Position numbers and translations under genes: made by a program. DNA of 55,160 nucleotides, from the IMG/VR virus record IMGVR_UViG_3300012065_000001, positions 1 to 55,160 of that record. One strand, 5' to 3'. Positions 604 to 55,160 of this stretch are shown in pieces (position 1 is the stretch's first letter; every line of letters begins with the position of its first letter). This stretch comes from a virus. The notes under the pieces are model-generated. The model worked only from the letters and a program-made list of their open reading frames with translations. It did not search any database and was not told the DNA's origin.

Positions 604-1919
604 ACGCAACAAAAGTCCCTCCTCATAGCATTGAGGCCGAACAATCTGTTTTAGCGTCTGTATTGCTAGATAATAAATGCCTCCCTTTGGTCACTAGTAT
701 ATTGAGCGCTAAAGACTTCTATAGCCCTGGGCATATCGAAATTTACGACGCTATGGCAGAACTCCAAAACAACAACATTCCGGTCGACATAGTGATGCTC
801 CGAGAAGAGTTGGTCAGGAAAGGTATGTTTGATCAGATTGGCGGGATGGAATATTTAGCTGTGCTTGCTGCCAGCAATTATACTTCTGCGCATGTAAAGT
901 ATCACGCGCAAGAAGTTAAGAGGCATTCGGAATCTAGGCAGATGATCAAGTCTGTTTTGGACCTGCTTCAAAAACCGGAAGGATTTACAACTGACGATCT
1001 TAAAAAATCCGCACAGGAGGCCGAAAACAACCAATACATAAAATCTTATGCAGAGAAATCAATGCAGAGCCTTGATGATTTTAAGCTTAACCTCCGAAAC
1101 AAAAAGCAGCGAATCTTAACCGGGTTTAAAACATTTGACAGTATTACTGGTGGCTTACGAGTGCCAAGTGTGGCAATGATTGGAGCGTATCCGAGCGTTG
1201 GGAAGACAGCATTTTCACTGAATGTCGCAGCGAATCAAAATGAGCCGGTAGTATTTTTTAGCCTTGAAATGTCAACCGAAATGATTTACGAGCGTTTGGC
1301 CTCTGCAATGCTGAAAATAGACTACAACCTGTTTACAACGCAACAGTTAACAGATAGCCAATATGGAAGCATTGAGGCATTTACAGGCACCCTTAAGCAG
1401 AAACCATTCCATGTGTACGACGATGAATACTATATTGAGCAGCAAGCCGCAATTATAGCGAATCTAAAACCCTGTTTAGCAGTCGTGGATTACATCCAGA
1501 AGGTCAAGACGCATCAGAGGACAGATGCTCGCCGTCATGAGATTGATTATATATCAGGCATGTACAAGCAGATCGCCAAGCAAAATAATTGCGTCATCCT
1601 ATTACTGTCCCAGCTATCCAGAGGGATAGGAGGTCCAGCAAAACCAACTATGTCAAATTTAAAGGAGTCTGGAGCGCTGGAAGCTGATGGAGATTATGTT
1701 GGGATACTACATAGGCCGTATGTGTTACAAAAAGATAAACTAAGCGAAATACGGCCAGAGGATGGGTATATCCTGATCGACAAGAACAAGTTTGGAAATA
1801 CGGGACAAATAGATCTGTATTTTAGCGGCAAGCATCAACAGTTTTACGAGGTCGAAAAAAGGAGTGTGTTTGCTCGAAGCGTTGAACTGGTCGAAGACAG
1901 TGAGATTCCGTTTAAGTGA
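600..1919 (+). CDS. dnaB: Replicative DNA helicase, DnaB family
   Basis: 439 aa. N-terminal PPHSIEAEQSVLASVLLDN signature, Walker A GAYPSVGKT, Walker B-like AVVDYIQ. Confidence 0.95.
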   Translation: MNATKVPPHSIEAEQSVLASVLLDNKCLPLVTSILSAKDFYSPGHIEIYDAMAELQNNNIPVDIVMLREELVRKGMFDQIGGMEYLAVLAASNYTSAHVKYHAQEVKRHSESRQMIKSVLDLLQKPEGFTTDDLKKSAQEAENNQYIKSYAEKSMQSLDDFKLNLRNKKQRILTGFKTFDSITGGLRVPSVAMIGAYPSVGKTAFSLNVAANQNEPVVFFSLEMSTEMIYERLASAMLKIDYNLFTTQQLTDSQYGSIEAFTGTLKQKPFHVYDDEYYIEQQAAIIANLKPCLAVVDYIQKVKTHQRTDARRHEIDYISGMYKQIAKQNNCVILLLSQLSRGIGGPAKPTMSNLKESGALEADGDYVGILHRPYVLQKDKLSEIRPEDGYILIDKNKFGNTGQIDLYFSGKHQQFYEVEKRSVFARSVELVEDSEIPFK

Positions 1920-7965: not shown

Positions 7966-8355
7966 TTGCCAAATAAACGAGATTTAAAACTTGACAAATA
8001 CGGAATAAGCAAACACAGATACAGAGAGCTATATAATTTTTGTTTGCAATATAAAGAGTTTATCAGAGAAAAAAATAGTTGTTATAGCCTTGACAGTAAG
8101 AATCTTGACGGGATGCCAAGAGGCGGTGGCGTATCGGATACAACGGCCAATAAGGCAGAACGGGCATATAAATTAAGCAAAAACATTGAATTAATAGAAC
8201 AGACGGCTATTGAGTCTAGCGGGGACTTGTATCAATGGATGTTGAAAGCTGTATCAGAAGATTTAACTTGGTACGATCTACAACCGCCATGTGGGCGAAA
8301 TGAATTTAACCTAACCAGGAGGAAGTTCTTCTTTTTGCTGAGTTTAAAAAAATAG
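7966..8355 (+). CDS. Putative ArpU/RinA-like late-gene transcriptional regulator
   Basis: TTG after AAGGAGGTG; located immediately upstream of the packaging module; DGMPRGGGVSDTT..IELIEQTA pattern resembles ArpU-family proteins. Assignment from memory only. Confidence 0.4.
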   Translation: MPNKRDLKLDKYGISKHRYRELYNFCLQYKEFIREKNSCYSLDSKNLDGMPRGGGVSDTTANKAERAYKLSKNIELIEQTAIESSGDLYQWMLKAVSEDLTWYDLQPPCGRNEFNLTRRKFFFLLSLKK

Positions 8356-8805
8356 GTGCTATATAGGACGTCGTTTTAGTTTATTATGTTACTATGGGTG
8401 AAACCCAAGGAGCCAACCTCCCGGCTCCAACATAGTGGGCTATAGGCCCGAAGACAATGAGGTTTGAGCCTCGTATACCAGCCCGAGGTGAACGCGGATG
8501 TGGAGGGAGCGCCATAATGTGCGCTGTGTAGGGCTGGGTTAATATCGACCTCCTTCTAACAGCCCCGGTATATAGGTGATCAGCATGAAAGAGCCCTAGA
8601 ATGTCTAGGGGATGTCTTTCATGATCGCTTGCCGGGGCGTAAAAAATGATATCCTGAGCAGTAAGCGCCTCACGATTCGAGGGTGGGCTGAGGCTTGGGG
8701 TTAAGATATATTGTTCCCGATAGGTCCGCGATGACGGCGGCCAAAAACCGTATGTGCGCACGTACAATGCTTTTTGGTAAGGGTTTGAGGGAGTATAATT
8801 TTAGG

Positions 8806-8879
8806 TATGGGAGCGTTAGCCAAACGGCAAGGCAAAAGCGACGGCTTAGATTATTGGTTCGAATCCGATACATTCCATG
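8806..8879 (+). ncRNA. tRNA-like four-way module with canonical T-arm but no anticodon loop
   Basis: 74 nt. Closing stem 8806-8812/8873-8879; hairpin GCC-AAAC-GGC (8819-8828); hairpin AAGC-GACG-GCTT (8836-8847); T-arm ATTGG-TTCGAAT-CCGAT (8853-8869). Confidence 0.45.
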
Positions 8880-34331: not shown

Positions 34332-35036
34332 TTGAACATAGCATTTAAACAGTGTAACGCTGCGAATTACACGCCAGGACGTACCAAGGCGATTCAGTAC
34401 CTTGTCATCCATTACACAGCAAATAACGGCGATTCAGCTAACAACAACGCTGTATATTTCGCATATCAAACGCCTGGAGCATCGGCTCATTATTTCGTTG
34501 ATGAAAACGATACGATATGGCAATCTGTTAAGGACACCGACACGGCCTGGCATTGCGGCGCGACGACATACAAGCATGCCTCATGCCGGAACAATAACAG
34601 TATAGGCATTGAGCTATGCAGCAGGCAGGATTCAGCGAAAAATTACTATTTCAAAGCTAATACCGTGACAAATGCCGTGGCTCTGACAAAGGAATTGATG
34701 GCGAAATATGGCATACCGGCTGAAAATGTAATCCGACATTACGATGTTACGGGGAAGAATTGTCCGGCGCCATTTGTTGGTGATTCGGCGCAATGGAGGG
34801 AGTTTAAAGCGAGATTGGAGGCCGAAGAAGTGACTCAGGAACAGTTTGAAAATATGTATGCGACGATGATCGCAAAAGCAAAGGGTGACAAGCCCAGCAG
34901 CTGGGCGAAGGAGATTTGCGAGGCTGCGAAGGAAGCGGGAATATTTAGGGGTGACGGAACTGGTTCGTATAACTGGCAGGACCCAATAACACGAGAGGCG
35001 TTGGCGTCGGTCTTGAAGAATGCAAAACTATTTTAG
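34332..35036 (+). CDS. Endolysin: N-acetylmuramoyl-L-alanine amidase (Amidase_2) with SLH-like C-terminal module
   Basis: YLVIHYTANN..ASAHYFVDE..AWHCGA..NNNSIGIELC; C-terminal WAKEICEAAKEAGIFRGDGTGSYNWQDPITREALA. Confidence 0.9.
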   Translation: MNIAFKQCNAANYTPGRTKAIQYLVIHYTANNGDSANNNAVYFAYQTPGASAHYFVDENDTIWQSVKDTDTAWHCGATTYKHASCRNNNSIGIELCSRQDSAKNYYFKANTVTNAVALTKELMAKYGIPAENVIRHYDVTGKNCPAPFVGDSAQWREFKARLEAEEVTQEQFENMYATMIAKAKGDKPSSWAKEICEAAKEAGIFRGDGTGSYNWQDPITREALASVLKNAKLF

Positions 35037-40470: not shown

Positions 40471-40647
40471 GTGAACATCATTGCTGAATGGATAACGGAA
40501 AAAGAATTGTGCGAATGGCTAAAAATCCAACGGGTAACAGCTTATCGTTGGCGAAAAGAAGGAATGCCTTACATTGGGCAACGAAAATCCATTCGTTACA
40601 ACAAGGAAGAAGTTGAAACGTGGTTTAAATCCAGAAACAAAGAATAG
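40471..40647 (+). CDS. Excisionase-family (MerR-like) HTH protein; likely initiates at ATT 40480
   Basis: Below track cutoff. ..WITEKELCEWLKIQRVTAYRWRKEGMPYIGQRKSIRYNKEEVETWF matches the Xis-type HTH. The perfect SD AAAGGAGGTGA (40464-40474) contains the only canonical start (GTG 40471). Confidence 0.7.
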   Translation: MNIIAEWITEKELCEWLKIQRVTAYRWRKEGMPYIGQRKSIRYNKEEVETWFKSRNKE

Positions 40648-42753: not shown

Positions 42754-43064
42754 AAAATATAAACCTGAGCCTGACCACCTGCCGGCGCATATTCGAAAAA
42801 CATGACCTGGAAATGGCTGAATATATTTCCGGAAAATCGGAAAAGGCATTGAACATGTCGGAAATATCCGACTATGCCCGTGGCCTGAGAGATAAGAGCC
42901 GCAATCAAAGCGCTGAGAGGTCCCACGAAAAAGCCGGTAGGCTTTCGAAATCCTATCGGTTGCCAAAAGAAACTGTTGATAGGTTTGCCGCAGCCTGCCG
43001 GGAGCGCGGAGAAACTCAGTCAGGCGTGCTAACTGAGCTTATGGAGAGATATACAGATGGCTAA
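42750..43064 (+). CDS. Ribbon-helix-helix (CopG-like) protein
   Basis: ATGA overlap; C-terminal KSYRLPKETVDRFAAACRERGETQSGVLTELMERY is RHH-like. Confidence 0.5.
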   Translation: MKNINLSLTTCRRIFEKHDLEMAEYISGKSEKALNMSEISDYARGLRDKSRNQSAERSHEKAGRLSKSYRLPKETVDRFAAACRERGETQSGVLTELMERYTDG

Positions 43065-43731
43065 CGTGGACAATGCCAAAACATGCAAGGCTGAGGGATG
43101 TACAAGGCTAGCTCGCGCTAAAGGATATTGCTATAAACATTATCAACAACTATATCACCATGGTCGTCTGACGCCAGAACGGGAGCAGCAGGAGCCAGGA
43201 CGGATATGCAGGGCGAGTGGATGCGGACGGTTAGCAAGCGGTGCCTTTGGGTACTGTTATGCCCATTATGCACAGATCAGGAATCACGGACGCCTGACAC
43301 CGGAGCTTGAAGTTGCCAAGAAGAAGCCTCAGTTATTACCGTGCAGTGCGGATGGATGCGATAGGCTTGCTGAGGCTGCCGGCTATTGCCGCAAGCATTA
43401 TCAGCAAATCCGTAGATATGGGCGAGTAACGCCTGACCGAGAGCGAGCAAGGAAAAAACCAACAACGCCAAGGGAATCCATGGAAGAGGACAAATACCCG
43501 ATTAAAAAATGTTTATTTTGCGGCAAAACTTTGCCAGTTGAAAAATTTAACAGTAAGCGAATTAATTATTGTGACGCGGTATGCCGATCCAAAAAATATT
43601 ATTACGAAAACCAGAAATCTTTGCTTGAAAAGAAGCGTCGGAAATATAGTGAAAATGACGAATACCGACAAAGATGTTTGCGGTATGAGAGAGAAAAGCA
43701 CAAAGACAAAAACAACGCCCTCCCCGAATAA
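43057..43731 (+). CDS. Zinc-ribbon repeat protein (3 tandem ~44-aa Cys/His units plus a C-terminal CxxC..C..C module)
   Basis: Three units of C-x3-GC-x-RLA-x3-6-GYC-x-(K/A)HY-x-Q-x4-GR(L/V)TP(E/D)xE, then CLFCGK..YCDAVCR. Confidence 0.65.
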   Translation: MANVDNAKTCKAEGCTRLARAKGYCYKHYQQLYHHGRLTPEREQQEPGRICRASGCGRLASGAFGYCYAHYAQIRNHGRLTPELEVAKKKPQLLPCSADGCDRLAEAAGYCRKHYQQIRRYGRVTPDRERARKKPTTPRESMEEDKYPIKKCLFCGKTLPVEKFNSKRINYCDAVCRSKKYYYENQKSLLEKKRRKYSENDEYRQRCLRYEREKHKDKNNALPE

Positions 43732-43748
43732 CCGGGAGGGAATTTTTT
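43718..43748 (+). terminator. Intrinsic terminator
   Basis: CCCTCCC/GGGAGGG stem plus AATTTTTT. Confidence 0.8.
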
Positions 43749-43776
43749 GTCGAAATAAAATTTTCAAAAAAATCTT

Positions 43777-43814
43777 AAAATAACATTGACAATAATCATT
43801 TTCAATGTTATTTT
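43777..43814. promoter_or_regulatory. 13-bp perfect inverted repeat (operator-like) overlapping a TTGACA box
   Basis: AAAATAACATTGA (43777-43789) / TCAATGTTATTTT (43802-43814) separated by 12 nt; TTGACA at 43787-43792. Confidence 0.6.
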
Positions 43815-43827
43815 TTATACATACTAA

Positions 43828-43918
43828 AAGTCAGCAAAGGGCAAACTTACCGAAAGGCAGGGGCGCAAAACTACGGGCCTAAAATCACTATGATCATGGC
43901 AGCCGGTTACCTACTTTA
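43828..43918 (+). promoter_or_regulatory. c-di-GMP-I (GEMM-I) riboswitch aptamer
   Basis: AAGGGCAAAC..CCGAAAGG..GGGGCGCAAAACTACGGGCCTAAA..GGCAGCCGGTTACC closely tracks the GEMM-I consensus / Vc2 aptamer (GGGCAAACC..GAAAG..GGGACGCAAAGCC.CCGGCCTAAA..GGTAGCGGGGTTACC). Confidence 0.8.
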
Positions 43919-43923
43919 TATTT

Positions 43924-43950
43924 AGCTGCTGGCTTCCGGCAGCTTTTTTA
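43924..43950 (+). terminator. Riboswitch expression-platform terminator
   Basis: AGCTGCTGG-CTT-CCGGCAGCT (9 bp, 1 G-U pair) plus TTTTTT. Confidence 0.8.
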
Positions 43951-44034
43951 TTTATAACACGCATTGTGTATTATTGCTAAAATTGCTGTCAATTTTATCA
44001 GAATTTTTCGTAGGGGGTGTGTAGGTGGTTTGTA

Positions 44035-44063
44035 TTGACATACATATGTTCGAGGATTAAAAT
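44035..44063 (+). promoter_or_regulatory. Sigma-70-type promoter
   Basis: TTGACA - 17 nt - TAAAAT. Confidence 0.6.
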
Positions 44064-44126
44064 TATACTAAAGTACCGAACAGATTTTCGAATTACATAC
44101 TAAAGGAGCTCAGGAGGTTGATTTAC

Positions 44127-44405
44127 ATGGAAAATGTTTTAACGTTAGACAGGTTAGAGATAGAGAATAAAAATGAAGAGGATGTAAATAACCTTGCTGT
44201 GGAAATGTTGAGGGAGGTTTGTAAGGGGATGGGGATAAAAGTATTTGAAATCCCAGAGGTAAATAAAACGTCCGTAAAATTTATTAAGCGGGAAAATGCC
44301 ATCGCTATTTATAGCAACGCAACCAGCACACATATAAAGGTTATGTTAGATATCATTTCCCACATTATACCCACAAAAGTTTTAGATGGAATCATTTCGG
44401 CTTAG
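44127..44405 (+). CDS. Hypothetical protein (92 aa), last gene before attP
   Basis: ATG 44127 lies 10 nt after AGGAGG. Confidence 0.55.
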   Translation: MENVLTLDRLEIENKNEEDVNNLAVEMLREVCKGMGIKVFEIPEVNKTSVKFIKRENAIAIYSNATSTHIKVMLDIISHIIPTKVLDGIISA

Positions 44406-44487
44406 TTGCAAAGTGCCTCAAAATGGCGTAAAATGGTGTTTGTTAAACGCAGATGATTTGCAGTAAGCGATATGCCAAGACCCGGAG

Positions 44488-44516
44488 GGTCGTAGGTTCG
44501 AATCCTACTCGGGGAG
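44488..44516 (+). other. tRNA 3' fragment (T-arm plus acceptor 3' strand): probable attP core
   Basis: GGTCGTAGGTTCGAATCCTACTCGGGGAG = T-stem GTAGG / loop TTCGAAT / CCTAC plus a 7-nt acceptor strand. No matching 5' half upstream. Adjacent to the integrase gene. Confidence 0.7.
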
Positions 44517-44551
44517 CTGGAGCCCGCATAAAAAGCGGATCGAAGTGGGAA

Positions 44552-44580
44552 CAAAAAAAGTGGAAAATTTGATTTCCCAC
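44552..44580 (-). terminator. Intrinsic terminator of the integrase transcript
   Basis: On the - strand: GTGGGAAA-TCAAA-TTTTCCAC followed by TTTTTTT. Confidence 0.7.
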
Positions 44581-44596
44581 TTTTTTCCCACTTTAG

Positions 44597-45757
44597 TTAG
44601 TTAAAAAGATAATTTAGCTTATTGACCTCATCGGTTTTTTTCTGGGGCATTAGATGCACATAAATTCTTTCGGTTTCCCGGATGCTCGCGTGTCCGAGGA
44701 GCCCGGAAACAGTTTTTATATCTACACCTGCCTCAAATAGTTTCGTCGCATAAGTATGCCTGAGATTATGCCAGCATCGACATTCCACACCGGCACGCTT
44801 TAAAATGCGTTCCCATGCACGAAGAAAATTTCGAGGTTCGAAATAATTACATCCGCCAGTTGTGAATAATGGACTCTTGATTGTATACCCAAGTCCATTT
44901 TTCAAATATTTTCGCTTTTGTTTCGTGACGTACCGCTGGAACGGTACAATCAAGCTGTCGGGAATTGGAACTTCTCGGCGGCTACTTTTTGTCTTGGGCG
45001 GCCCTATTTTTAATTTATATTCATAGGAGCCGTCTCTTTTTATTATTCGGGATTTTTTTAGAGCTTTTGTGATTTTCACAGCACATTCTTCCAAATCAAT
45101 ATCTTTTTCGGTCAAGGCGAGCTGTTCACCTTCCCGAAGACCGGTTCCTAATGCAAAAAGAAACGCAAACTCCATATCATGACCGCTGATTTCTTTTTTT
45201 ATTTTATCAAGCTCTTCATCCGAAAAGGGATTGATTTCTTCCTCTTCTTCGTCTTCTTCTGTCCATTCTTTTTTATCCTGTGGGAGCTCTATACCCTTGC
45301 AGGGATTAGCCAGTATAATTTTTTGTTCCACGGCATACCCCAGAAACATCTTCAATGTTTTATTTATATCTTTTACGGTATTAGCTGACGTCCCTGAATC
45401 GATTTTTTGATTGTAAAATCGTTGAATGCTCAAGCCTGATAAATCCCTAATACTTATATCGGCAATGTCAGAATCTTTTATATGCACACGATACGCGCTT
45501 TCATATTTGGCCTTTGTGCCATCCGCGCGTAAGGACGGCACAATCACATCGTAAATCCATATCTTCATGAGTTCTTGTAGACTCATTTTTTTATAATCCG
45601 TACGAAGACCAGAAGATAAGTCTGCCTTATATGCCTCGTATTTTGCCTCGGCATCTTTCTTGCAACTTCCCAGGAACTCCTTTCTTTTTCCGCTCACAGT
45701 TCGAACAATGCGGTAATATTCGTATCCATTCTTCCTATAGTTTGTTTTTTTAGACAT
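44597..45757 (-). CDS. int: Tyrosine integrase
   Basis: 386 aa; ..GLREGE..(box I), HNLRHTYATKLFEAGVDIKTVSGLLGHASIRETERIYVH (box II, catalytic Tyr). Confidence 0.95.
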   Translation of the reverse strand: MSKKTNYRKNGYEYYRIVRTVSGKRKEFLGSCKKDAEAKYEAYKADLSSGLRTDYKKMSLQELMKIWIYDVIVPSLRADGTKAKYESAYRVHIKDSDIADISIRDLSGLSIQRFYNQKIDSGTSANTVKDINKTLKMFLGYAVEQKIILANPCKGIELPQDKKEWTEEDEEEEEINPFSDEELDKIKKEISGHDMEFAFLFALGTGLREGEQLALTEKDIDLEECAVKITKALKKSRIIKRDGSYEYKLKIGPPKTKSSRREVPIPDSLIVPFQRYVTKQKRKYLKNGLGYTIKSPLFTTGGCNYFEPRNFLRAWERILKRAGVECRCWHNLRHTYATKLFEAGVDIKTVSGLLGHASIRETERIYVHLMPQKKTDEVNKLNYLFN

Positions 45758-45761
45758 GGCC

Positions 45762-46136
45762 TCAATCCTTTCTATATTTAGTTTTCAAAAGATCAATAAA
45801 ATATTTTAATTCCCCCTGCGCCTCATCCGGTAGTTCGAGAATGTCTTTTATGGTAGATGATATTTCCTCATCGTCCAATTGAGGTATAATATTTCCGGTT
45901 TCCGCATCAATACCAATTGCGATATCTTCTTGCTGTTCTTCCCAGCCCATGAGATAGATAGGGGATACATTCAGAGCGTCGGCAAGAGCATGGATGGTTG
46001 ATCGTTTCAAATTCTTGACTGTGCCTTTTTCATACTTCTGTATCGCAGCCTTTTTGACGCCTATCTTCATGCCTAATTCTTCTTGGGTATAGCCCATTGA
46101 ATTTCTGAGTTCTTTTATCCTATTTCCGATATTCAT
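45762..46136 (-). CDS. CI-like repressor (XRE-family HTH)
   Basis: IKELRNSMGYTQEELGMKIGVKKAAIQKYEKG; divergent from the cro-like gene. Confidence 0.85.
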   Translation of the reverse strand: MNIGNRIKELRNSMGYTQEELGMKIGVKKAAIQKYEKGTVKNLKRSTIHALADALNVSPIYLMGWEEQQEDIAIGIDAETGNIIPQLDDEEISSTIKDILELPDEAQGELKYFIDLLKTKYRKD

Positions 46137-46211: not shown

Positions 46212-46225
46212 GTAAAAATTAAAAA

Positions 46226-46242
46226 ATATCTTAAAAAGATTA
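46226..46242. promoter_or_regulatory. Operator-like site O3 (degenerate)
   Basis: ATATCT-TAAAA-AGATTA. Confidence 0.45.
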
Positions 46243-46280: not shown

Positions 46281-46284
46281 TTCA

Positions 46285-46301
46285 GTATCTTAACCAGATA
46301 C
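46285..46301. promoter_or_regulatory. Operator O1
   Basis: GTATCT-TAACC-AGATAC perfect 6-bp arms, 4 nt downstream of the -10. Confidence 0.65.
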
Positions 46302-46342
46302 ACAAGACAGAAACGACGTTTGCCCAGAGGGGTGGTGAGACT

Positions 46343-46561
46343 ATGAACAAGGCAAAATTAAAATCATTGATGGTTTTGCATGGAGATACAAACTTATCGC
46401 TTTCAGCCGAATTAGGCGTGTCAGCACAAAGATTTTCAATGAAAATCAATGAATCACATGGAGCTGAATTTACTCAAAATGAAATATCTATTATCAAGCA
46501 AAAATACAAATTAACAGGAGATGAGCTGGCAGAGATTTTTTTTGACGAAAAAGTATCTTAA
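46343..46561 (+). CDS. Cro-like small HTH regulator
   Basis: ATG 46343 after GGGGTGGTGAG; LSLSAELGVSAQRFSMKIN; first gene of the rightward operon. Confidence 0.65.
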   Translation: MNKAKLKSLMVLHGDTNLSLSAELGVSAQRFSMKINESHGAEFTQNEISIIKQKYKLTGDELAEIFFDEKVS

Positions 46562-46569
46562 ATAGATAC
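46553..46569. promoter_or_regulatory. Operator O2
   Basis: GTATCT-TAAAT-AGATAC, same arms as O1; overlaps the cro-like stop codon. Confidence 0.6.
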
Positions 46570-46589
46570 ATAGCGAAAGGAGGCCCATC

Positions 46590-54704: not shown

Positions 54705-55160
54705 ATGGCCAGCCCGCAAAAAGAAAATGGGTATACACCGATCGCAAACGAATTATTGGAGGCGTTCATAAGGAGCAATTTTAACATAACACAAAATAAA
54801 ATTGTTTTAACTGTTTGCCGATACACTTATGGATTTAGCCGAAAGAGCCATGAATTATCTGTGTCTTTTATAGCGGAGGCCATAAGCTGCAATGTGCGGC
54901 AAGTAAAGAGAGAATTGCACAACTTAATTGACCAGAATGTCATTAATGTTATTCAAGAGGCCTCCTTTAATTCGTCAAGAAAGTTAGCCCTTAACAAAAA
55001 CTATGAATCATGGGCTTGTCACCAGGTGGCGAACCAGTCACCAGGTGACTCTACAGACACCTCACCAGGTGACTCTACAGACACCTCACCAGGTGACTCT
55101 ACAGACACCTCACCAGGTGACTCTACAGACACCTCACCAGGTGACTCTACAGACACCTCA
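54705..55160 (+). CDS. Replication initiator, N-terminal lambda-O-like DNA-binding domain (3' partial; continues at nt 1)
   Basis: Not in the track because the frame has no stop before the window end. ATG 54705; ENGYTPIANELLEAFIRSNFNITQNKIVLTVCRYTYGFSRKSHELS matches the Phage_rep_O N-domain, then runs into the repeat array. Confidence 0.8.
   Translation, partial: MASPQKENGYTPIANELLEAFIRSNFNITQNKIVLTVCRYTYGFSRKSHELSVSFIAEAISCNVRQVKRELHNLIDQNVINVIQEASFNSSRKLALNKNYESWACHQVANQSPGDSTDTSPGDSTDTSPGDSTDTSPGDSTDTSPGDSTDTS
55035..55160. repeat. 24-bp tandem repeat array (1 degenerate copy, 4 perfect copies, plus 6 nt), same unit as nt 1-120
   Basis: Degenerate copy at 55035-55058 (first 3 nt differ); perfect copies at 55059, 55083, 55107 and 55131; a partial relative TCACCAGGTGGCGAAC just upstream. 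Confidence 0.95.

Follow-up and report, generated by a model that had tools for sequence, protein, structure and literature searches.

A probable c-di-GMP-I OFF riboswitch upstream of a small gene next to the candidate attachment site of a temperate phage

The subject of this study is a putative riboswitch locus for cyclic di-GMP (c-di-GMP) in the virus record IMGVR_UViG_3300012065_000001, the whole of which (positions 1 to 55,160; 55,160 nt) was analyzed and is hereafter called the window. The window represents a temperate, siphovirus-like phage of a Gram-positive host. Along the + strand, the locus opens with the intrinsic terminator of an upstream operon (43718-43748), which overlaps the stop codon of a gene for a 224-amino-acid (aa) zinc-finger protein. 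There follow a near-perfect palindrome of 38 bp (43777-43814) that embeds a predicted promoter, P1 (43786-43814), a c-di-GMP-I (GEMM-I) aptamer (43827-43917), the riboswitch terminator (43924-43950), a conserved spacer (43951-44034) and a second predicted promoter, P2 (44035-44063). The small gene behind them, an open reading frame of 92 aa (ORF92, 44127-44405), is the presumed regulated gene and the last one before the candidate core of the phage attachment site attP (~44478-44520). Beyond this core lie, on the minus strand, the gene of a tyrosine integrase (44597-45757; Pfam Phage_integrase, 1.4e-20) and, immediately upstream of that gene, a cI-like repressor gene (45762-46136; HTH_3, 1.1e-14). 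A preliminary description of this DNA had placed the unit between the terminator of the cargo operon and the last gene before attP; the hairpin with its U-tract, ORF92 and the integrase were indeed found in this order.

The aptamer was identified with the Rfam covariance models. The c-di-GMP-I model, RF01051, matched positions 43830-43914 (+) over its full length (cmscan; model positions 1-87 of 87) with 68.7 bits and an E-value of 2e-11, which is about twice the gathering score of 35. It was the one strong regulatory-RNA match in the window, and a permissive Rfam scan of 43650-44650 for further RNA elements gave sub-threshold noise only. The preliminary description had claimed a GEMM-I aptamer at 43828-43918 and had proposed the Infernal/Rfam comparison as a check; the claim stands, with all boxes of the family present. 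When the model pairs are projected onto the RNA, the closing helix of the aptamer (helix P1) is formed by 43827-31/43913-17 and 43833-34/43910-11. The hairpin at 43846-43861 carries a GAAA tetraloop (43852-43855), and the receptor hairpin (43869-43908) contains the flanks CCUAAA (43878-83) and CAUGG (43895-99) and the end GGUUACC. The RF01051 alignment also shows the GGCAAAC box and the GCGCAAAAC junction. The GAAA tetraloop would dock into the receptor, in the manner of two docked hairpins.

We equate G20 of the Vc2 aptamer with G43840, A47 with A43867 and C92 with the first C of ACC. G43840 precedes the GC of GGCAAAC, A43867 follows CGC, and ACC follows GGUU. Variants specific for cyclic GMP-AMP (cGAMP) carry A at the position equivalent to G20 of Vc2. 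The contact residues observed here would fit specificity for c-di-GMP, not for cGAMP. In its full consensus architecture, in its GAAA tetraloop and receptor and in its conserved ligand-contact positions, the aptamer resembles the Vc2/RF01051 type; the Vc2/GEMM-I family is said to be the subject of a 2008 study by Sudarsan. It differs from that type in helix P1, which is short and A-U-rich and whose 5' strand doubles as the antiterminator described below.

The 9-bp terminator with a U-tract noted earlier at 43924-43950 was borne out by a terminator scan. Its hairpin (43924-43944) consists of 9 bp, six of them G-C, formed by 43924-32 and 43936-44 around a 3-nt loop, and is followed by TTTTTTATTTA. 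The hairpin has an energy of -14.5 kcal/mol, and its sequence is unchanged in all of the relatives introduced below. The segment AAGUCAGCA (43828-43836), which is also the 5' strand of helix P1, can form 9 bp with UGCUGGCUU (43927-43935), made up of the 5' arm and the loop of the terminator. The former segment represents the 5' half of an antiterminator, and the latter doubles as its 3' half. The antiterminator helix encloses the entire aptamer and adds -10.8 kcal/mol, compared with -0.6 kcal/mol for helix P1. In a nascent RNA ending at 43935, the minimum-energy fold is the antiterminator helix (43828-36/43927-35), whereas the terminator wins once its 3' arm is transcribed. When the 5' flank was shuffled, 43 of the 5000 shuffles paired equally well with the terminator arm. 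Since the antiterminator strand is common to helix P1, the predicted fold of the expression platform is mutually exclusive with the ligand-bound aptamer.

Because the 5' strand of helix P1 pairs with the 5' arm of the terminator, we infer that c-di-GMP most likely switches transcription from P1 OFF. This direction, which the preliminary description had left unstated, agrees with reports on the class-I switches of Clostridioides difficile. P1 is composed of TTGACA, a 17-nt spacer and a TG-extended TATTTT box (10 of 12 consensus positions), and its hexamers and TG are identical in all relatives. Transcription would start from this promoter at ~43821. With c-di-GMP bound, the weak helix P1 would be locked and the terminator arm would be freed, the hairpin at 43924-43944 would form, and RNA polymerase would halt at ~43950 to leave an RNA of ~130 nt. 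At low c-di-GMP, the 5' strand of helix P1 would instead pair with the 5' arm of the terminator, displacing helix P1, and transcription would run ~180 nt further, into ORF92. The share of expression repressed by c-di-GMP would be added atop the expression of ORF92 driven by P2. ORF92 would thus be expressed at a higher level in the low-c-di-GMP state (motile, planktonic) and at a lower level in the high-c-di-GMP state (sessile, biofilm). We consider it probable that the locus functions as a class-I c-di-GMP riboswitch of a temperate phage and that it acts as a transcriptional OFF switch on the P1 transcripts feeding ORF92.

Thirteen related loci were available for comparison, from protein look-ups (L001-L010), a scan of viral contigs (L011) and a metagenome scan (L013-L014); L011 and L013 are apparently one contig of 35,516 bp. 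The ORF92 protein forms four clusters among 5.8 billion proteins. The aptamer is kept in all 13 loci (RF01051, 65.9-66.9 bits) and lies ~210 nt upstream of the ORF92 homologue in each case. Three recombinase modules occur across these loci, namely the tyrosine integrase of the window, a serine recombinase of 518 aa and, in third place, a gene resembling those of serine recombinases. The C-terminal half of ORF92 falls to 48-54% identity among the riboswitch-bearing relatives. The block that is shared extends from ~43709 to ~44235, that is, from the remnant of the upstream terminator to the end of the first 27-36 codons of ORF92, and the sequence beyond it on both sides is unrelated or strongly diverged. 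Further variants were sought in three scans of viral contigs and one metagenome scan, which returned only copies of the same two variants.

A comparison of L001, L005, L009/L010 and L076 placed a mosaic junction within ORF92 at about codon 27-36 (44127-44235 versus 44236-44405). One upstream block with one N-terminus is joined to four C-terminal halves, each beside a recombinase of its own (a tyrosine integrase in two cases and a serine recombinase in the other two). Since each C-terminal version stands beside its own recombinase, the riboswitch block marks one boundary of a swappable lysogeny module.

P2 consists of TTGACA, a 17-nt spacer and TAAAAT. It matches 11 of the 12 consensus positions, in agreement with the earlier suggestion that the downstream gene has its own promoter at 44035-44063, and is probably native to the small gene. 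P2 is located downstream of the riboswitch terminator and upstream of ORF92; only the P1-derived share of expression would therefore be gated by c-di-GMP. A ACATATGT palindrome is found in the spacer of P2 (44038-44052), and TGTTCG/CGAACA arms flank its -10 box (44046-44083). Distant members of the family (in L077 and L082) have the ATATGTTC motif upstream as well, and it may be an operator for some regulator. A masking of the ribosome-binding site in the longer transcript was considered and rejected, as the predicted accessibility of this site showed no clear difference between the P1 read-through leader and the P2 leader.

The spacer between the riboswitch terminator and P2 holds an antisense promoter-like site and a G-rich element (44005-44036). 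The region 43950-44100 shows only 1-2 differences per ~150 nt, against ~9% divergence in shared genes elsewhere. Constraint on the spacer is therefore indicated. The antisense site, TTGACA-18-CACAAT (43992-43963, minus strand), converges on P1 across the terminator and the aptamer, and an antisense RNA over the riboswitch is conceivable. Three perfect TTGACA boxes lie within 255 nt, where ~0.2 would be expected.

ORF92 looks like a real gene on account of its ribosome-binding site, its ATG/GTG switch, its open frame in four versions and its predicted domain. The AGGAGG at 44112-44117 ends 9 nt ahead of the start codon, which switches between ATG and GTG among the variants, and the frame is open over 69-92 codons in the four divergent C-terminal versions. 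The AlphaFold (AF2) models consist of a helix, a three-stranded sheet and a helix, with a predicted local distance difference test (pLDDT) score of 70-72. The protein is acidic (isoelectric point 5.3) and soluble, with no hydrophobic or predicted membrane segment. The searches of ORF92 gave no Pfam match above threshold (one sub-threshold DUF2226), no PHROG and no PADLOC match. In three Foldseek searches, the best matches were zincin-like folds (minigluzincins, IrrE/ImmA, SprT), all of them weak (E 0.008-0.5; template modeling (TM) score 0.3-0.5), with best E-values of 8e-3 against BFVD and 0.1 against PDB.

The likeness to ImmA/IrrE (COG2856), SprT and the minigluzincins lies in the order of helix, three-stranded sheet and helix and in a conserved His. 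In addition, distant members of the ORF92 family adjoin genes of the XRE helix-turn-helix (HTH) or ribbon-helix-helix (RHH) type, as ImmA stands beside ImmR. Unlike these proteins, however, ORF92 is half the size and has no HExxH metal site: the zinc-binding motif is absent from the family alignment, in which H69 is the one conserved His, with neither a Glu nor another His at the matching positions.

ORF92 could be an accessory factor of lysogeny or integration, that is, a dead ImmA-like decoy, an antirepressor or a recombination directionality factor for the adjacent recombinase. As such it would couple induction or excision to the motile-versus-biofilm state, and the cassette would be a portable sensor placed on an att-proximal gene. 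We regard this proposal as improbable; the observations compatible with it are that ORF92 is always att-proximal, its C-terminal half co-varies with four recombinase modules, it has a weak likeness to ImmA/IrrE, and its distant relatives pair with XRE-HTH or RHH. If ORF92 does affect lysogeny, the locus would link biofilm signalling to prophage behaviour. A 58-aa protein of the HTH_17 (excisionase) family is encoded in the accessory region, ~4 kb from attP (40471-40647, +), and is a more conventional excisionase candidate than ORF92.

To our knowledge, phage-borne c-di-GMP riboswitches have so far been studied in C. difficile only. The prophages phiCD630-1 and phiCD630-2 and the phage phiCD119 carry the class-I riboswitches Cdi1_4/Cdi1_5 (Soutourina 2013, PMC3649979). 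The preliminary description held the targets in clostridial phages to be poorly understood, which is at variance with the experimental characterization of Cdi1_4/Cdi1_5 of phiCD630-1 and phiCD630-2 (Peltier 2020, PMC7699646). In these prophages, P1 and the riboswitch yield a terminated RNA of ~140 nt, read-through drops at high c-di-GMP (OFF logic), transcription also starts downstream of the riboswitch at P2, the stronger of the two promoters, and the RNA produced serves as antitoxin in a type I toxin-antitoxin pair (PMC7699646). The locus in the window resembles Cdi1_4/Cdi1_5 in that a class-I aptamer of a temperate phage is placed in the accessory region, with the lysis genes on one side and the integrase on the other, and in the order of P1, aptamer, premature terminator (RNA of ~130-140 nt) and P2, the promoters of the window being consensus matches only. 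We found the phiCD119 aptamer (73.2 bits) between the lysis genes and the integrase as well, with a P1-like promoter just upstream.

The target, on the other hand, is different. In Cdi1_4/Cdi1_5 it is an antitoxin RNA that is antisense to the gene of a membrane toxin, whereas here it is a same-strand gene for a soluble 92-aa protein beside attP. There is also no sequence similarity past the aptamer core. Searches with the locus against 50,697 phage records (megablast and blastn) gave no match, and blastn of 43712-44240 against the same records matched nothing, including the phiCD119 region. A convergent small hydrophobic ORF with a promoter downstream of the riboswitch was looked for in the locus of the window and was not found. 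Because of the absence of a convergent hydrophobic toxin gene and of sequence homology, the locus is not a member of that antitoxin module, but it would work like Cdi1_4/Cdi1_5. The layout closely parallels that of the C. difficile prophages. As it stands, the result is a solid annotation with a testable mechanism and no surprise. The tandem-promoter design recurs in a phage lineage unrelated to those prophages and stands before another kind of target there, which suggests that it is a general means by which prophages read the second-messenger state of the host.

Another comparison is offered by Cdi1_6 and Cdi1_8-11 of C. difficile, class-I OFF riboswitches that precede 58-aa membrane-associated proteins promoting sporulation (bioRxiv 10.64898/2026.06.10.731418). 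Both there and in the window, a class-I OFF switch (predicted as such in the window) stands before a gene whose very small product belongs to a lineage-restricted family. The C. difficile proteins are hydrophobic, membrane-associated and chromosomal, however, while ORF92 is acidic, has no predicted membrane segment and is phage-borne, and no similarity between ORF92 and the 58-aa proteins was detectable.

Several facts weigh against the reading of the locus as an OFF switch for ORF92. P2 is nearer to the consensus than P1, and the equivalent P2 dominates in C. difficile (PMC7699646); the regulatory weight of the riboswitch may be small. A second segment (~43854) pairs equally well with the terminator arm. 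The codon changes in ORF92 between the window and L001 (9 non-synonymous, 5 synonymous) point to weak constraint on the protein. The three aptamer variants are too alike for covariation in the aptamer or the expression platform, and the only helix substitution in the relatives, C43900U in the L005 group, turns a G-C into a G-U pair. In addition, plain minimum-energy folding misses the aptamer (z-score 0). Such a failure is usual for aptamers that are stabilised by tertiary contacts.

Three other interpretations of the element were considered. It might be mainly a stand-alone small RNA gene, the ~130-nt product of which serves, for instance, as a c-di-GMP sponge or acts in trans, with ORF92 expressed essentially from P2 alone. 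The full-length RNA favours the terminator (-26.9 versus -22.6 kcal/mol), ORF92 is separated from the terminator by P2, a match to 11 of the 12 consensus positions, the gene family also occurs without the riboswitch, and C. difficile has an abundant terminated RNA and a riboswitch-linked transcript that is dispensable (PMC7699646). However, a specific 9-bp antiterminator that shares the strand of helix P1 is a hallmark of a cis-acting switch, the cassette is found on the same strand and directly upstream of ORF92 in every locus, and a few copies of RNA per cell would make a poor sponge; we therefore judge a stand-alone RNA unlikely. The layout of P1, aptamer, terminator and P2, which is identical to that of Cdi1_4/RCd11 (PMC7699646), and the position of the phiCD119 riboswitch in the accessory region would also accommodate control of an antisense antitoxin RNA of a type I pair, as in C. 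difficile, in place of an mRNA. This seems very improbable, considering the missing convergent hydrophobic ORF and promoter, the lack of similarity to the phiCD119 region, and the properties of ORF92 itself: its strong ribosome-binding site, its ATG/GTG switch, its open frame in four divergent versions and its confident alpha/beta model. The ligand might also be another one, for example 3',3'-cGAMP as in GEMM-Ib, or the aptamer might be an inactive relic, given that a covariance-model score alone cannot establish specificity and that just three near-identical variants are at hand. The score is twice the gathering threshold, however, the G20 equivalent is G (43840) where cGAMP-specific variants have A, and the aptamer is better conserved than the nearby genes across the mosaic relatives, so that we hold a different ligand or a relic to be most unlikely.

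The palindrome around P1 admits a further interpretation. The preliminary description had noted a TTGACA box within a perfect 13-bp inverted repeat and had read the repeat as an operator. The repeat is present as placed and extends further, the arms being 17 nt long (43777-43793/43798-43814; 94% complementary) around a 4-nt centre; the operator role fared less well, as the substitutions in the relatives fit a terminator hairpin at least equally. On the + strand, the palindrome would form an RNA hairpin of -11.6 kcal/mol (z -5.4) that is followed by six U. The upstream terminator has a G+C-rich hairpin of -13.9 kcal/mol (43718-43740), followed by AAUUUUUUG, which has decayed to -4.8 kcal/mol in L005, L009 and L010. 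In the L005 group, the arms of the palindrome carry a symmetric pair of changes, A-to-G and T-to-C (A-U to G-C in the RNA), and an A-to-G change that is asymmetric in DNA (U-A to U.G). Both arm substitutions keep the pairing of the + strand RNA and leave the -35 box, the TG and the -10 box of P1 untouched. The + strand hairpin is strengthened from -11.6 to -13.4 kcal/mol, while the minus-strand hairpin is weakened from -12.1 to -9.4 kcal/mol. The + strand hairpin is thus stronger exactly where the upstream terminator has decayed, which makes a terminator hairpin no less likely than an operator.

A repressor operator, by which P1 would be under the dual control of a DNA-binding protein and c-di-GMP, would explain why a near-perfect 38-bp palindrome is centred on the promoter spacer and is unique in the window (0.02 chance matches expected), and one of the substitution pairs is symmetric, as an operator would have it. 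On the other hand, the second substitution breaks the symmetry of the arms in DNA and leaves a U.G pair in the + strand RNA, the hairpin gains strength on the + strand and loses it on the minus strand where the upstream terminator was lost, and six U residues follow. Moreover, no second copy was found, and the palindrome differs from the putative CI operators of the immunity region (TATCTTAAnnAGATA). An operator is in our view possible but doubtful. On the tentative evidence of the two substitutions, we rank somewhat above it a role in which the palindrome backs up the termination of the upstream operon and at the same time accommodates P1; both roles could apply together. Palindromes like TATCTTAAnnAGATA occur at 46221-46240 and 46284-46302, in the intergenic region of cI and cro, and at 46552-46570, past the cro-like gene. 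These sites are likely to serve CI or Cro as operators and are unlike the palindrome of the riboswitch promoter.

The 224-aa protein encoded just upstream of the riboswitch (43057-43731, +) contains three Cys-rich repeats (GYC.KHY...GR.TPE) and matches Zf_WRKY19 and DUF5763 of Pfam and 'HNH endonuclease' families of PHROGs. It is absent from the variants with serine recombinases. Domain searches of the neighbouring cargo genes showed no c-di-GMP-related or defence domains.

The history of the riboswitch cassette can be approached through relatives of ORF92 that are not preceded by a riboswitch. A profile search of 1.84 billion representatives found four more members of the ORF92 family, which comprises fewer than 10 clusters. 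One of them (P0006) combines an ORF92-like N-terminus with a fourth C-terminus and lies beside another tyrosine integrase. Another (P0005) is preceded by a 74-aa RHH-like gene and directly adjoins a transfer-messenger RNA (tmRNA) gene, which suggests that it is the terminal gene of an element integrated at ssrA; in L078, the tmRNA gene is complete (1504-1854, minus strand; 166.8 bits) and ends 60 nt from the stop codon of P0005. The third (P0007) follows a 74-aa XRE-HTH gene between host genes, and the fourth (P0008) is on a contig of 1,524 bp with no informative neighbours. No riboswitch was found at the loci of these four members.

Parts of the locus downstream of the riboswitch are nevertheless recognizable there. 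The 32-nt G-rich element TTTTCGTAGGGGGTGTGTAGGTGGTTTGTATT (44005-44036) has a counterpart of 84-88% identity upstream of P0005 in L078-L081 (E 1e-5 to 1e-4), and the core of P2 is ~80% identical upstream of P0007 in L082-L084 (E 0.04). A terminator in L078 aligns with 43705-43750 of the window. Since the riboswitch-less relatives keep the G-rich element and the P2 core, a cassette was likely added upstream of an existing promoter-gene unit. The comparison suggests that this cassette of ~240 nt, with P1 and the palindrome, the aptamer and the terminator (roughly 43760-44000), was inserted between the upstream terminator and the older unit of P2 and its gene, and it gives a fairly clean picture of such an addition. 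A split cassette, with the upstream 108-aa ORF as the homologue of the RHH partner in L078, was considered and rejected, as the two show no similarity. What sets the locus apart is its unannotated, att-proximal small-protein target, the evidence for cassette insertion and the position of the block at a mosaic boundary of the lysogeny module.

The candidate attP core resembles the 3' half of a transfer RNA (tRNA), with a variable-arm hairpin, a T arm containing GGTTCGAATCC and an acceptor strand, as read from the sequence. This tRNA-like half is conserved in L001 up to ...CTCGGGGAG and is likely the attP core; ARAGORN finds no complete tRNA at 44478-44520. The aptamer is in the last intergenic region before the candidate attP and the integrase, and the tRNA-like half makes the earlier placement of the riboswitch next to attP a reasonable call. 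The terminator scan detected no + strand terminator between the stop codon of ORF92 (44405) and the att core, and a bidirectional hairpin lies on the integrase side (44554-44586). It would therefore be topologically possible in a lysogen, as the preliminary description had proposed, that transcripts of ORF92 enter the host DNA beyond attR. Such read-through transcripts would first cross the duplicated 3' end of the tRNA, where the own terminator of the host tRNA gene is to be expected.

Aptamers of the c-di-GMP-I class are not rare on viral contigs. A deliberately narrow pattern found 62 stretches in the IMG/VR viral contigs, and 13 of the 16 metagenome-derived stretches that were tested passed the Rfam threshold, with very diverse downstream genes. 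The expression platform or the spacer of the cassette in the window was found at none of the other viral aptamer loci, the similarity being at the level of the aptamer only. One of the contigs (L016) carries two tandem c-di-GMP-I aptamers (8264-8339 and 8384-8457, minus strand) upstream of surface-protein-like genes. In another (L055), a c-di-GMP-I aptamer (573-670) lies ~140 nt upstream of a CRISPR array (812-1103), and a RAGATH-8 RNA was found in L029 (3599-3874).

The gene set of the phage includes a large terminase, an endolysin, the integrase and the cI-like repressor. The terminase is ~57% identical to those of Enterococcus and Lactococcus phages, the endolysin (34332-35036) has an Amidase_2 and an SLH domain, and the G+C content of the window is 44.7%. 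The host would seem to be other than C. difficile, because none of the 185,579 GTDB species genomes matched the 34-nt aptamer pattern exactly; an exact-pattern scan of the same genomes with the tRNA-like att fragment also gave no match, and neither a host genome nor an integrated copy turned up in the two scans. At 8810-8877 (+), Rfam gave a tRNA match of 39.5 bits (gathering score 29), while ARAGORN found zero tRNAs in the window. The match may stem from a phage tRNA that has diverged, or from an element that resembles a tRNA. The ends of the window share an exact terminal redundancy of 102 nt, consistent with a circular assembly. Arrays of the 24-nt tandem repeat ACCTCACCAGGTGACTCTACAGAC occupy both ends (1-120 and 55019-55160) and read as VSVESPGE repeats on the minus strand, and the closure of the circular assembly falls within this repeat array.

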